Source: Elusimicrobia bacterium RIFOXYA2_FULL_39_19 (lineage in GTDB: Bacteria > Elusimicrobiota > Endomicrobiia > CG1-02-37-114 > XYA2-FULL-39-19). Taken from it: a stretch of 64,000 nt of DNA. The notes beneath the pieces are model-generated. The model saw only the letters and a list, made by a program, of their open reading frames with translations, did no database searches and was not told where the DNA came from. Below, one piece after another: positions 25,568 through 48,703 of this stretch. Position numbers and translations under genes: made by a program. The DNA lies in assembly GCA_001800285.1 (NCBI GenBank), contig MGVC01000014.1:1756-65755 (forward strand), in the 5' to 3' direction. How positions within the stretch are numbered: position 1 is the first letter of the stretch; each line of letters begins with the position of its first letter.

Positions 25568-26243
25568 CTTTTTTATCGCTTTTCCCCTGGCTTCTTAAAA
25601 TACTTATTTCAATTCTTCTATTTTTTGCGCGGCCTTCTTCCGTATCATTGGATTCCAAAGGATGAAACTCGCCGTAACCATAAACAGTAAAACGTTTTGA
25701 ATCTATTTTTTCTTCGTCCATAAGATATTTTATTACGCTAAAAGCCCGGGCTGCGGATAATTCCCAGTTTGAATCATACTTTCCCACTCCGGCTCTTACC
25801 GGAATGTTGTCCGTATAACCTTCTACTACAATATTATTCGGCATGTCCTTTATAATTTTCGCTATGCCTGACAAACTTTTTGCCGCTTCCGGTTTTAAAG
25901 CCGCTTCACCTGAATTATAAAGCACGGGTGCCGGCAGGGATATTTTTATTCTTTGAGAATTAATTTCTATTCTTGCAGTATCCTGCAGTTCGGATGACAA
26001 TTTATTTGCTGCGTCCGATTCTTTTGATTTCTGGCTGGCATCTTCATCTACCTTGCCACCCATGGCTGACTGTACGTTTGAAAGCAGTTTTTCTGACTCC
26101 AGACCCCCCATTGCTGATACGGAGTATAACAATAGGAAGAAGATCATTAAAGTAGTTATCAGGTCAGCATAAGGGACAACCCAACTGGATGGGTCATAAA
26201 GTGCCCTTTTATCTACCTTACCGCCAATATCTCCACCAGACAT
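25551..26243 (-). CDS. motB: MotB/OmpA-family stator protein, paralog 1. It has a single TM with the conserved Asp and a C-terminal peptidoglycan-binding OmpA-like domain.
   Basis: N-terminus ..VVPYADLITTLMIFFLLLY matches the MotB TM/plug region with the essential Asp. The C-terminus ..VVEGYTDNIPV..SNWELSAARA..NRRIEISIL matches the OmpA/MotB peptidoglycan-binding domain. A GAGG Shine-Dalgarno sits 11 nt upstream of the ATG. Confidence 0.8.
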   Translation of the reverse strand: MSGGDIGGKVDKRALYDPSSWVVPYADLITTLMIFFLLLYSVSAMGGLESEKLLSNVQSAMGGKVDEDASQKSKESDAANKLSSELQDTARIEINSQRIKISLPAPVLYNSGEAALKPEAAKSLSGIAKIIKDMPNNIVVEGYTDNIPVRAGVGKYDSNWELSAARAFSVIKYLMDEEKIDSKRFTVYGYGEFHPLESNDTEEGRAKNRRIEISILRSQGKSDKKDEKKN

Positions 26244-26247
26244 AAAT

Positions 26248-26552
26248 AAAACCTCAAGTTTTATTTACCCAGACGCTTTGGTTTTTTAAGCCGCATGGTG
26301 CGGATGAAAAACCAGTCAGGGTATAAAACCTCAATTTCCTTTACCCAGACGTTTTGGTTTTTTAAGCCGCATGGTGCGGATGAAAAACCAGTCAGGGCAT
26401 AAAACCTCAATTTCCTTTACCCAGACGTTTTGGTTTTTTAAGCCGCATGGTGCGGATGAAAAACCAGTCAGGGTATAAAACCTCAATTTCCTTTACCCAA
26501 ACGTTTTGGTTTTTTAAGCCGCATGGTGCGGATGAAAAACCAGTCAGGGTCA
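26248..26552. repeat. Tandem array of four ~76-77-bp direct repeats (>90% identical). Each unit contains an imperfect hairpin: ggtttttt-aag-CCGCA-tgg-TGCGG-atg-aaaaacc.
   Basis: Units begin at 26248, 26325, 26401 and 26477. They are contiguous with no unique spacers. They lie in the 400-bp gap between the two motB paralogs. Unit 1 supplies the Shine-Dalgarno/leader of motB paralog 1. Confidence 0.85.
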
Positions 26553-26573
26553 TAATTTCAAAAAGTGATTAAG

Positions 26574-26640
26574 TGATTAGGTTGTTAAGTGGTTAGTAAA
26601 TTATTTTAACTAAACACTAACCACTTAATCACTATTCACT
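26574..26640. repeat. Imperfect palindrome. The core is a 13-bp perfect inverted repeat, ttaagtggttagt (26586-26598) and actaaccacttaa (26616-26628), with flanking gtgatta direct repeats.
   Basis: Seen directly in the sequence. It lies immediately 3' of the motB paralog 2 stop and 5' of the tandem repeat array. Confidence 0.6.
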
Positions 26641-26645
26641 ATTTT

Positions 26646-29608: not shown

Positions 29609-29686
29609 AATTTTCTCCTAATGTCTTTATATATTATTTATTGTGTAACTTTTCAAATATTTTGCGCTTTCTTCCAGTAGAGCAGC

Positions 29687-29715
29687 ATTTATATACATAC
29701 CAGACCCAATTTCAA
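29687..29715 (-). promoter_or_regulatory. Candidate promoter for the fliG-like/motA/motB operon: TTGAAA-N17-ATAAAT (minus-sense).
   Basis: Plus-strand tttcaa (29710-29715) and atttat (29687-29692). It sits in the 125-bp gap upstream of the fliG-like start at 29608. Confidence 0.3.
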
Positions 29716-29733
29716 GACTGGCCATATTTCTGA

Positions 29734-30009
29734 CTATTCCATAATTTTGAAATTGCTGGTGTCTTCCGGAATTAAAGCAGGGAATTTGTTTGGTACTACC
29801 CTTACTTTCCAGCCAAAGGAATCTTTGACAGCGTATTTATCTATTGATGGTATATTTTCATTGCCCATGCAAAAAGGGCATTCTGACAGGTATGAAGGTA
29901 AGTCTTTTTTTACTATTTTTTTATCTGAAAAATCTTTCGGTCTTTTTGCTCTTTCGGTAGCGATAATAACCCATTCTCTTACTGCTATATTCTGTCTGAG
30001 TTGAGGCAT
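29734..30009 (-). pseudogene. N-terminal fragment (91 aa) of a galactose-1-phosphate uridylyltransferase (GalT/HIT-like) family gene. It is truncated after the zinc-binding CPFC region.
   Basis: The fragment ..REWVIIATERAKRP...CPFCMGNE...VVPNKFPAL matches the GalT N-terminus. Full-length members are ~320 aa and carry a downstream HxH active site. Here the ORF stops after 91 aa, and no continuation exists in any frame before the next gene. Confidence 0.45.
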
Positions 30010-30153
30010 AAAACCCCTTAATAGTTATGAGTTTTAGAGCACTTGAAGGTATATTCTATATATCATTTTATTTATCAAAAAACAACGTTTTTTTAATAAT
30101 TATAATGATTTAAACCGTGCAGGCTCATTTCAAATGGGTGTTTTTCCTTAAAC

Positions 30154-30182
30154 TTGACAAAATATATATGAAATGATAGAAT
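30154..30182 (+). promoter_or_regulatory. Candidate sigma70 promoter P2 upstream of tRNA-Glu: TTGACA-N17-TAGAAT.
   Basis: Exact -35 hexamer at 30154-30159. The -10 is at 30177-30182. It lies ~110 nt upstream of the tRNA. Confidence 0.4.
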
Positions 30183-30258
30183 ACGGAATTACAAAATTCT
30201 GAGAACATTTAGTAATTTTTTTGAATTTTCGCTCTTTTGGATGTATGTTATCTGAAAC

Positions 30259-30286
30259 TTGAGATTTGAAATTTGAAATCTATAAT
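30259..30286 (+). promoter_or_regulatory. Candidate sigma70 promoter P1 immediately upstream of tRNA-Glu: TTGAGA-N16-TATAAT.
   Basis: A consensus -10 TATAAT at 30281-30286 sits 4 nt before the tRNA 5' end. The -35-like hexamer is at 30259-30264. Confidence 0.5.
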
Positions 30287-30290
30287 TCAC

Positions 30291-30362
30291 GCCCCCATCG
30301 ACTAGCGGTTAGGTCATCGCCCTTTCAAGGCGGTAACACCAGTCCGAATCTGGTTGGGGGCG
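30291..30362 (+). tRNA. tRNA-Glu (anticodon UUC), 72 nt, no encoded CCA.
   Basis: Cloverleaf folded by hand. Acceptor GCCCCCA/TGGGGGC. Anticodon stem TCGCC/GGCGG with loop CTTTCAA. T-arm ACCAG-TCCGAAT-CTGGT. The overall sequence is close to bacterial tRNA-Glu(UUC). A T-run follows. Confidence 0.85.
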
Positions 30363-30485
30363 TTTTTTTATTTTTATAGGCTACCGCCGCAGAAAGGCGA
30401 TACGCCCTTTCAAGGGTTGCAATGCGACGAATAAGGAGCATTGGCTGCAACGGGTTCGAGACGGTGAGAACCCTGGGCCGAAGGC

Positions 30486-30523
30486 TAACACCAGTCCGAA
30501 TCTGGTTGGGGGCGTTTTTTTAT
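30486..30523 (+). repeat. 38-nt direct repeat of the tRNA-Glu 3' portion (variable loop, T-arm, 3' acceptor strand, discriminator and T-run). It is identical to 30334-30371.
   Basis: The exact string taacaccagtccgaatctggttgggggcgtttttttat occurs twice, 152 nt apart. The intervening 114 nt also contain a second copy of cgccctttcaagg. Confidence 0.8.
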
Positions 30524-30670
30524 GCCCCAAAACCGTACTTTTGTGCTGACTGATAAAACACCTACCCCGTGCAGTTTTCAATCCTGATTTATCCTTTTAT
30601 AATTGGATATCTGGATATTGCTCATAAACAAAACAATTTGAAAACTATCGCAGGGATAAATGTCACACAT

Positions 30671-30703
30671 GCATTCATCTCCACTTTAGGTGGATATGAA
30701 TGC
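30671..30703. terminator. Near-perfect 14-bp inverted repeat hairpin 7 nt downstream of the PorV-like gene stop. It is a possible bidirectional terminator.
   Basis: Arms gcattcatctccac (30671-30684) and gtggatatgaatgc (30690-30703) with one mismatch and a 5-nt loop. A T-rich tract follows on the plus side; only a weak T-run follows on the minus side. Confidence 0.3.
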
Positions 30704-30709
30704 TGCCAT

Positions 30710-48103: not shown

Positions 48104-48514
48104 TTGAAAACTCTCCTTTCTTATTATTTTTAGCCTAATCATTATAATAAATATAAACATTAAATTCAAACACAGTTCTATTAAATATTTAAAATATTTA
48201 ACAAGTGGTTTTTTAAGAAAAATAGGTGGGTTGACAGTTTGTATAGCCTTTTTTTGTTAAAAAAATTGAAAAATGAAAGATTAAACGTTTGATTGTGTGT
48301 ATTTTGGATGGTTTTGGATCTACATTAAAACTAAGTGGTAGGCAAGTTTACTAGTACTATCTCATATTTAGCGACTTGTTTCTTTTGAGACATGTTTTCA
48401 ATACGGCGAATAGCCGTAATTATCAATAATTTGATTATTGAGGCGGCTTAGTTCCGTCGAATTATATTTTTGATGCAGCGGATAGCTGCGGTTATCAAAA
48501 ATATGTCAATGAGA

Positions 48515-48601
48515 CGGAGAGGGCGAGATTCGAACTCGCGCTCCGGAAAACCGAAGACTGGTTTTCGAGACCAGCGGTTTCAACCGCTCACCCACCTCTC
48601 C
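48515..48601 (-). tRNA. tRNA-Ser (anticodon CGA), class II with a long variable arm, 87 nt, no encoded CCA.
   Basis: Hand-folded. Acceptor GGAGAGG/CCTCTCC. Anticodon stem CTGGT/ACCAG with loop CTCGAAA. Variable arm CTTCGG-tttt-CCGGAG. T-arm GCGAG-TTCGAAT-CTCGC. Discriminator G. Near-identical in layout to E. coli serU. Confidence 0.85.
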
Positions 48602-48689
48602 ATTACACTTCTTTTCTTTCCGAGTTGTGTTCGGGAACCGCCCCCGATGCTTCCAAATGACTGCTGATTATCGGGGCTCCTTTCAGTCG

Positions 48690-48703
48690 TCACCCACCTC
48701 TCC
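48690..48703. repeat. 14-nt exact duplicate of the tRNA-Ser 5' end (tcacccacctctcc). It lies ~100 nt upstream of the tRNA in the tRNA's orientation.
   Basis: Exact match to 48588-48601. The intervening segment contains an 8-bp hairpin, gccccgat..atcggggc. Confidence 0.6.

Follow-up and report, generated by a model that had tools for sequence, protein, structure and literature searches.

A two-hairpin motif beside a tRNA-Glu gene of an Elusimicrobia genome belongs to a structured family spread over at least two phyla

Introduction

Integration at a tRNA gene classically leaves the 3' end of that tRNA in direct repeat. One such repeat stands in the stretch of DNA analysed here, 64 kb of Elusimicrobia bacterium RIFOXYA2_FULL_39_19, a metagenome-assembled genome from the Rifle aquifer; we call this whole stretch the window. 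Its tRNA-Glu gene is followed by an exact 38-nt copy of its own 3' end, and the question is what left the copy there. An earlier note, made from the letters alone, saw the signature of an integrase acting at a tRNA attachment site, that is, an attL/attR scar, and offered as an alternative a structured small RNA co-transcribed with the tRNA.

Although the repeat resembles an ordinary att scar, it led us to a structured, conserved motif. More than 120 environmental contigs contain this motif, and they represent two phyla at the least, Elusimicrobiota and Nitrospirota. We argue that the tRNA-Glu unit, 152 nt long, is probably a small non-coding insertion element that carries this motif. Loci and contigs compared with the window are labelled with L-numbers (L002, L008, L027 and so on).

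Results

The tRNA-Glu(UUC) gene is intact and has no encoded CCA (30291-30362, + strand; found by ARAGORN, 56.8 bits with the Rfam model RF00005, fold z-score -3.98). The 38-mer TAACACCAGTCCGAATCTGGTTGGGGGCGTTTTTTTAT, its last 29 nt and 9 nt of trailer, occurs in two exact copies 152 nt apart. Copy 1 (30334-30371, +) covers tRNA positions 44-73 and the 9-nt trailer TTTTTTTAT with its T-run (30363-30371, +). Copy 2 (30486-30523, +) has the T-arm, acceptor 3' strand, discriminator and T-run, without a 5' acceptor strand. A 24-nt part of the 38-mer, sought with up to three mismatches, gave two matches in the 64 kb, both at this locus, and none is expected from shuffles; if a 2-nt gap is allowed, the tRNA similarity of the second copy extends back to tRNA position 37. 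The 114-nt insert body and the 38-nt repeat that closes it form one unit of a 152-nt tandem array (30372-30523, +). This structure is no assembly artefact, being the same in seven independent assemblies that span the locus.

The 5' part of the insert body resembles the anticodon arm. A hairpin found by an inverted repeat search, TACCGCC-GCAGAAA-GGCGAT (30382-30401, +), has the stem strands of the tRNA-Glu anticodon arm and a different loop; aligned to the tRNA it gives p ~0.01 inverted and ~0.08 direct, and its fold z-score is -2.4. It is followed by CGCCCTTTCAAGG (30403-30415, +), an exact 13-nt copy of the 5' strand and loop of the anticodon stem, the original of which lies within the tRNA at 30318-30330. 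This 13-mer abuts the motif. Hairpin P1 (30416-30451, +) has a 6+4 bp stem with a bulge on the 3' side, capped by the conserved GACGAAUAAGGA with its invariant GAAUAA, and hairpin P2 (30452-30473, +) has a 6-bp stem and the conserved loop GAG-NN-GGUGA. A possible small third hairpin, GGCC-GAA-GGCU (30476-30486, +), and its counterpart GGAA-CCAC-UUCC at the equivalent position of L027 were read from sequence only. AAGG is present on either side of the core of the unit, and over the rest of the spacer similarity to tRNA-Glu is marginal or absent.

A terminator scan flagged the T-arm hairpin and T-run at both copies of the repeat, with 8 nt between hairpin and T-run. At copy 1 the full acceptor stem is predicted to abut the U-run directly, so that stem and trailer resemble an intrinsic terminator; a chance alignment to the Rfam family Phe_leader likewise pairs the tRNA-Glu acceptor stem ahead of the U-run.

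These results bear out, at the coordinates it gave, what the earlier note had described: the tRNA with its exact 38-nt copy beyond a 114-nt spacer, a copy of the anticodon stem-loop (the exact 13-mer) and hairpins within the spacer, and a second copy that is not a second tRNA. At E<=10 Rfam called only the one tRNA at the locus, and ARAGORN, with introns allowed and its thresholds at default or slightly relaxed, called no other either; no Rfam family matched the spacer at E<=10 when 30100-30700 was scanned. The hairpins, which the note had called strong, exist and covary across the family, though their single-sequence energy is only modestly better than that of shuffles (z-scores of -2.6 for P1 and -0.7 for P2, and -1.6 to -2.3 for the whole unit). 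It is the comparative data that show P1 and P2 to be real, selected hairpins.

We traced the motif in relatives found by way of SmpB, after a copy of a tRNA-Ser 5' end had been spotted in the window. One of them, L027, is from a third Elusimicrobia lineage and contains a homologue of window 30416-30473 between smpB and tRNA-Ser. Comparison of the two shows 16 pairs, six of them compensatory and none broken, with both loops conserved: there are 12 substitutions in 32 stem nt and two in 22 loop nt. Not one of 200,000 simulations with random stem substitutions preserved all 16 pairs. The loop pattern CGACGAATAAGGAGC, 8-30 nt and GGTGAG was then found in more than 120 metagenome contigs among the matches listed, where by our own estimate about five would be expected by chance; we examined 80 of these loci, in which a covariance model identified 94 copies. 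As most members were chosen by a pattern that fixes loop 1, its conservation is partly by construction, and the 12 copies detected by the model alone served to judge which loop positions vary.

Covariation across the family is strong. In the 94-copy alignment 98.3% of 1,308 pair cells are standard pairs and 15 of the 16 pairs show double-sided changes, a result equalled in none of 500 shuffles; when partner columns were slid by 1-3, pairing fell to 22-59%. G·U pairs far outnumber A·C (54 versus 4, p=3e-12), and the folded strand is therefore the tRNA sense strand. Throughout the family P1 is directly followed by P2, the GAAUAA loop sitting on a long irregular P1 of about 10 bp with a 3' bulge and the loop GAG-N(1-2)-GGUGAG on P2. 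The copy in the window has this arrangement with all 16 pairs formed. Model R2, built from metagenome copies only and with the window left out, scores 30416-30473 at 65.7 bits (E=6e-12), and model R1 gives 82.4 bits. The window copy is a member of this structured motif family.

The motif is widespread and absent from Rfam 15: 20 loci scanned at the gathering threshold matched no family, and the same held at E<=1 for five loci that represent every context type. We found no description of the motif, of a small element that targets tRNA ends or of an Elusimicrobia tRNA repeat in the searchable literature; unindexed motif lists may hold the motif. Mimicry of Shine-Dalgarno and anti-Shine-Dalgarno sequences by the loops (UAAGGAG and GGUGA) was considered and is weakened by variants that swap GGAG for Watson-Crick partners, GAAUAA alone being invariant. 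A conserved small open reading frame (ORF) in the core is excluded, since the window and L027 differ there by an indel of 2 nt.

Fifteen copies, in 12 of 79 loci (15%), lie within 400 nt of a tRNA gene, compared with about 1% that we estimate for a random site, and 13 of the 15 are downstream of the tRNA on the same strand. The topology at these sites is that of an intact tRNA, an insert, and an exact copy of the tRNA end with a few trailer bases, always around the motif. At five tRNA-Pro loci (L038, L039, L060, L062 and L096) the exact repeats are 29-44 nt long and run from the T-arm through CCA to 1-4 nt of trailer. The order within these units is spacer, anticodon-arm-like hairpin with altered loop, AGG, motif, CGGAC, and the copy from T-arm to CCA with its trailer; the motif takes the place of variable-loop nt 47. 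The hairpin with the stem of the tRNA and an altered loop, found in tRNA-Pro units including L060 and L096, is the equivalent of the one in the window, and L096 has two tandem units 159 nt apart. A tRNA-Ser locus, L051, has a 32-nt repeat of tRNA end and trailer that frames an insert of ~170 nt.

L027 is the mirror image of these loci, with an 18-nt copy of the tRNA-Ser 5' end upstream, then the motif, and then tRNA-Ser itself. While L027 has this insert, smpB is directly followed by tRNA-Ser without one in L022/L023 and L024-L026. The window has its own variant of this site, which mirrors the case of tRNA-Glu: in the stretch that separates smpB from tRNA-Ser(CGA) (48513-48602, - strand), at 48603-48703, the 5' end of this tRNA is partially copied ~100 nt upstream of its gene. 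The copy, GGAGAGGTGGGTGA-CGACTGAAA, matches at 21 of 24 positions, including an exact 14-mer (shuffle p=0.0005). The 88-nt insert there is not significantly similar to the element of L027 (p ~0.10), and neither R1 nor R2 finds the motif in it; it may be a decayed copy of the motif element.

Other copies lie between or beside protein genes. In L101 an insert of ~235 nt separates motA from a fliF/G-like gene; the repeat that frames it is a perfect one of 21 nt and takes in the motA ribosome-binding site. An insert 91% identical to it lies immediately upstream of a tRNA-Ala in L097, which comes from the same metagenome. Taxonomy was assigned for two context types of the family. The commonest type is Nitrospira, with a PlsX protein 86-88% identical to that of Nitrospira spp. 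Here the element is ~215 nt long, with the motif at its centre and inverted-repeat ends of ~25 bp that resemble a bidirectional terminator; its copies have sharp boundaries and are dispersed beside unrelated housekeeping genes, some with nested insertions. The plsX region of cultured Nitrospira moscoviensis has no copy of the motif, whereas that of L065 has one. The orientation of the motif relative to neighbouring genes is inconsistent, and no recurrent protein partner emerged among 20 neighbouring genes. A BLAST search of plasmids with one Nitrospira-type copy gave no match.

Two further observations concern the Nitrospira-type contigs. A nested palindrome of ~47 nt (GGCGCGTCTCGGCGCGCC...) occurs in one arm of the outer stem in L036, L040, L046, L068 and L070, which suggests a second small repeat family in those genomes. 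L036 also has a group I intron at 1968-2233 (Rfam RF00028, 69.5 bits), ~900 nt from its motif copy.

The unit beside tRNA-Glu is a tandem array of variable copy number. Six of the seven assemblies have tRNA-Glu and one unit, and GCA_036722975.1 has tRNA-Glu and two identical units; the junction of unit, repeat and unit cannot arise from one-unit genomes. Tandem Repeats Finder reports a period of 152, 2.2 copies and 100% identity at this two-unit locus (L002); with the same period, the window has 1.25 copies. The short-k contigs of Logan are broken within the 38-nt repeat. A window 24-mer (T-arm and acceptor) had no match in the metagenome collection, which evidently lacks this species.

The nearest relative is represented by L008-L010, with the same gene order, a PorV-like protein 43% identical and DNA ~70% identical. 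In L008 the PorV-like gene is followed by promoter, tRNA-Glu and full-length galT within 135 nt on one strand, with no unit, so that the comparison with relatives proposed in the earlier note found the tRNA without any insert. The flanks are collinear between window and relative from ~28.9 to 36.8 kb, and no integrase or island gene lies on either side of tRNA-Glu within them. The first 48 nt of tRNA-Glu are identical in the two genomes. The six differences between them all fall within the last 24 nt, where two T-stem pairs differ in a compensated manner, U55 is replaced by C and the discriminator base is a different one.

Position 55 of tRNAs is U (pseudouridine 55) almost universally. The T-loop of the window's tRNA-Glu (30344-30350) reads TCCGAAT, with C at this position, and the repeat copy at 30496-30502 carries the same C; the T-loop in L008 is the canonical TTCGAAT.

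The tRNA-Glu of the window has a sigma-70-type promoter, TTGACA-17-TAGAAT (30154-30182, +), which matched the consensus at 11 of 12 positions and is orthologous to the promoter before tRNA-Glu in L008 (25 of 30 positions identical, equalled in none of 500 shuffles). The module of promoter and tRNA lies in an intergenic gap of 700 nt (30010-30709); against L008 5937-6071, its orientation is reversed with respect to the PorV-like and galT genes. The distance from promoter to tRNA is 26 nt in L008 and 108 nt in the window, where it includes a short TGAAATT repeat (30253-30279). The extra intergenic DNA of the window (30010-30153, 30183-30290 and 30515-30709) shows no homology to the L008 stretch of promoter, tRNA and galT beyond the promoter. 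An 11-mer after the array, TTTTATGCCCC, matches the leader/tRNA junction of L008 without significance (p ~0.1).

The neighbours of the locus are the galT remnant, a fliF/G-like gene, the PorV-like gene and an S8 protease; the gene downstream of the unit is the PorV-like outer-membrane protein gene, which is convergent. No endoribonuclease toxin gene is adjacent, as would be found beside a type III toxin-antitoxin (ToxI-like) array. The truncated galT reported in the earlier note is real, by Pfam (GalP_UDP_transf) and tblastn. The pseudogene (29645-30009, - strand) retains an N-terminal remnant (91 amino acids at 29734-30009, of which the 90-amino-acid galT part is placed at 29746-30009) and a C-terminal piece (29645-29767) equivalent to amino acids 286-331 of the 336 of L008 GalT, the middle of the gene having been deleted. 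The gene was truncated by an internal deletion of its own, which lies beyond the promoter as seen from the insert, and any link between the two is only putative.

A second tandem array lies elsewhere in the window, at 26246-26555, between an ORF ending at 26243 and a motB-like gene. Its 76-nt unit, present in 4.1 copies of 96% identity, contains the hairpin GCCGCATGGTGCGG and has no sequence relation to the 152-nt unit. Rfam gave nothing credible in the stretch scanned: a plant microRNA match just 3' of the array (26559-26645; 29.5 bits against a gathering threshold of 74) and a weak wcaG match overlapping its 3' end (19.2 bits against 42) were both taken as chance.

Discussion

We consider it probable, at roughly 0.6, that the 152-nt unit is a small non-coding insertion element which entered directly 3' of tRNA-Glu, left the tRNA intact and was later tandemly amplified. 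Its core is the two-hairpin motif, which folds on the tRNA sense strand. Pieces copied from the host tRNA flank this core: 5' of it stand the anticodon-arm-like hairpin and the 13-mer, and 3' of it the T-arm, acceptor 3' strand and 9-nt trailer. The topology is that of an integrative element; the outer junctions, between promoter and tRNA 5' end and between the tRNA-end copy and the downstream flank, would be the original ones, and the insert would have supplied a replacement for the tRNA end that it displaced. The tRNA would thereby remain intact and its end be present twice. The number of units could then change in either of two ways, the 38-nt repeats recombining unequally or the regenerated site receiving further insertions, and the one-unit and two-unit alleles would be the outcome. 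The element is present in one and absent from another of related genomes at three orthologous sites: tRNA-Glu in the window and L008, smpB and tRNA-Ser in L027 and L022/L024, and plsX in L065 and N. moscoviensis.

Read-through from the tRNA promoter would put the motif in transcripts. Since every unit closes with a T-arm, acceptor strand and U-run like those of a tRNA, such RNA could be trimmed by tRNA 3' processing or by termination, as for E. coli rtT. The earlier note's alternative of a structured RNA co-transcribed with the tRNA fits the excess of G·U over A·C pairs, and co-transcription itself seems plausible from the position of the unit behind the promoter.

Several results weigh against an insertion element of this kind. 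About 85% of the copies stand away from tRNAs and have no direct repeats, in place of which the Nitrospira type carries inverted ones. The element may spread in more than one way, or its flanks may not belong to it but be its targets. No recombinase, transposase or reverse transcriptase lies near any copy examined, so that mobility is deduced from the distribution of the copies alone. The bracketing repeats vary in length between 18 and 44 nt, where classical transposons make short target duplications of fixed size. Within the 64 kb R2 detects one copy only. The contigs of the window's species are all identical in sequence, and the window locus therefore contributes no covariation. We found no pair of empty and filled sites within one species for the tRNA-Glu locus, and the inversion of the module means that its flanks cannot be compared base by base with those of the relative.

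Could the motif belong to a gene family that does not move? On this, the main rival reading, it may be a conserved small-RNA gene, a functional protein-binding or regulatory module in tRNA trailers and leaders or in terminator-like rods. Local duplication and gene conversion would recruit or maintain the tRNA-end copies for the 3' processing and termination of tRNA type that these provide. Tandem units would then be sibling small-RNA genes, like the rtT RNA of the E. coli tyrT operon. The folding of the tRNA sense strand, the conservation of the loops across two phyla, the position of the unit downstream of a strong tRNA promoter and the U-run at the end of each unit all agree with this, and the E. 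coli tyrV-rttR region shares the anatomy (a 178-nt period, 3.1 copies, reaching 19 nt into the tRNA 3' end). It does not readily explain why the element is present or absent among close relatives at three orthologous sites, why near-identical inserts occur at unrelated loci of one community, why Nitrospira copies have sharp ends beside unrelated genes, or why the motif has no consistent orientation to its neighbours. We judge an exclusively non-mobile family to be rather unlikely, although the two readings can coexist, as a mobile element can also yield a functional RNA.

For the attL/attR scar suggested by the earlier note, an island or prophage integrated at the tRNA would have lost its interior by deletion, so that only 114 nt now separate two att cores. 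The exact 38-nt direct repeat is what such a scar would show, the confinement of the six tRNA differences to the last 24 nt looks as if the 3' end had been replaced, and the locus is rearranged, with its tRNA module inverted and galT decayed. What remains of the note's integrase-type signature is the footprint of an insertion, the topology of which recurs at tRNA-Pro and tRNA-Ser genes of unrelated bacteria; the scar itself does not fit collinear flanks without an integrase or island gene beside the repeats. Nor is there a third copy of the tRNA end in the 64 kb, and viral contigs had no match to the tRNA 3' end, the second hairpin or the loop pattern, and so did not point to a phage attP. Far from being random remnants, the 114 nt form an intact and conserved member of the motif family with a high score, the unit is tandemly duplicated in one assembly, and precise excision would leave a single att site. 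A lost island is thus very improbable. Quite improbable, too, is a decayed tandem copy of tRNA-Glu, without function or mobility, which would have lost its 5' part and gained 60-70 nt of inserted or intron-like sequence in the anticodon arm. The pieces of tRNA do stand in the right order (anticodon-arm-like hairpin, 13-mer, 3' 36 nt), AAGG flanks the core on both sides, and ARAGORN at an 80% threshold proposes a pseudo-tRNA with a 58-nt intron. That model is poor, however, with mismatches in the acceptor stem and no real D arm, and the Rfam tRNA model detects nothing. With a 3' part of 100% identity and no 5' part, the copy has an asymmetry that recurs at tRNA-Pro and tRNA-Ser in other phyla and that random decay would not predict, and the supposed insertion is a conserved, covarying element. 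A pattern of anticodon-loop copy, 60-90 nt and T-arm matched only L007 in the genome collection, by chance, at two adjacent tRNA-Glu genes; this 2.2-kb contig (JAZGCJ010000325.1), binned as Thermodesulfobacteriota, has eight tRNA genes among small ORFs and the look of a phage-type array. The Rfam search that the earlier note had proposed identified no known element, so no match arose to contradict it.

Returning to the insertion element, a more tentative step is to see in the two-hairpin core a possible new class of non-autonomous mobile RNA-structured element, one that inserts while regenerating the host function it interrupts. Its targets would be structured sites prone to be single-stranded, such as tRNA loops and ends, terminator hairpins and ribosome-binding regions, and the mobilising enzyme would recognise the folded core on one strand. 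A candidate is a single-strand DNA recombinase; another is reverse splicing at the RNA level followed by reverse transcription, which would also account for the 5'-truncated tRNA copies and for the bases of the pre-tRNA trailer in the repeats. The element is far too small to encode an enzyme of its own. The bias towards the 3' side of tRNAs, the exact locus-specific repeats that spare the tRNA or the ribosome-binding site and the recurrent tandem amplification together suggest a harmless colonisation of essential genes. If confirmed, this would be a new family of bacterial structured RNAs or mobile elements, and it would account for contig breaks and copy-number ambiguities beside tRNA genes in metagenome assemblies.

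A comparison can be made with integrative elements that target tRNA genes and with their integrase-less derivatives. As in those, the insert is situated within a tRNA gene or at its end, a replacement tRNA end leaves the gene intact, tandem arrays can form and presence varies among relatives. Unlike them, the inserts here are only 97-170 nt long and non-coding, with no integrase nearby. The conserved part behaves as a strand-specific RNA (or single-strand) structure, unlike a duplex recombinase-binding site, and where att repeats copy the tRNA 3' end, the inserts with the motif may repeat a tRNA 5' end (L027) or a ribosome-binding region (L101).

MITEs (miniature transposable elements that carry inverted repeats), and the hairpin-forming REPINs built from repetitive extragenic palindromic (REP) sequences, are also short, non-coding, multi-copy and intergenic, lie beside unrelated housekeeping genes and fold into long hairpins, and the Nitrospira type further shares with them its terminal inverted repeats of ~25 bp, sharp ends and nested insertions. 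The core has loops conserved across phyla and stems that covary, which MITEs and REPs do not usually show. The tRNA-linked copies differ from MITEs in having locus-specific direct repeats of 18-44 nt, with no inverted repeats or short fixed target duplications; the window unit, likewise without terminal inverted repeats, is framed by its 38-nt direct repeat instead. The modular plan recalls, by analogy only, the superfamilies of CORE-SINE type (short interspersed nuclear elements, SINEs), in which a tRNA-related part and a conserved central domain are combined with lineage-specific parts (a concept set out in PMC4758252). Unlike a SINE, which carries its tRNA-derived head, the motif element has tRNA parts copied from the adjacent host tRNA, and reverse transcription is without evidence here.

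A likeness in anatomy is found in the tyrT/rtT region of E. coli (rttR, RF00391). The rtT units encode a small peptide, Tpr, and to our knowledge are confined to enterobacteria. By contrast, the core found in the window is present in at least two phyla and in many contexts away from tRNAs, and the 2-nt indel between the window and L027 leaves no conserved reading frame; no RF00391 match was obtained over 30100-30700 even at E<=10. One repeat unit of the E. coli region reportedly encodes rtT RNA (PMC3318445, citing Bosl and Kersten 1991). The arrangement is nevertheless the same in both: a tRNA is followed by tandem units that each end with a tRNA 3' segment, and the array overlaps the tRNA's own 3' end. 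When checked from sequence, the E. coli repeats have a 178-nt period, 3.1 copies and 95% identity and overlap 19 nt of tyrV, while in the window the period is 152 nt and the overlap takes in 29 nt of the tRNA and 9 nt of its trailer. If the behaviour proposed here for the motif element is confirmed, it would give a broader evolutionary context to the long-unexplained tRNA-distal repeats of the tyrT/rtT type.

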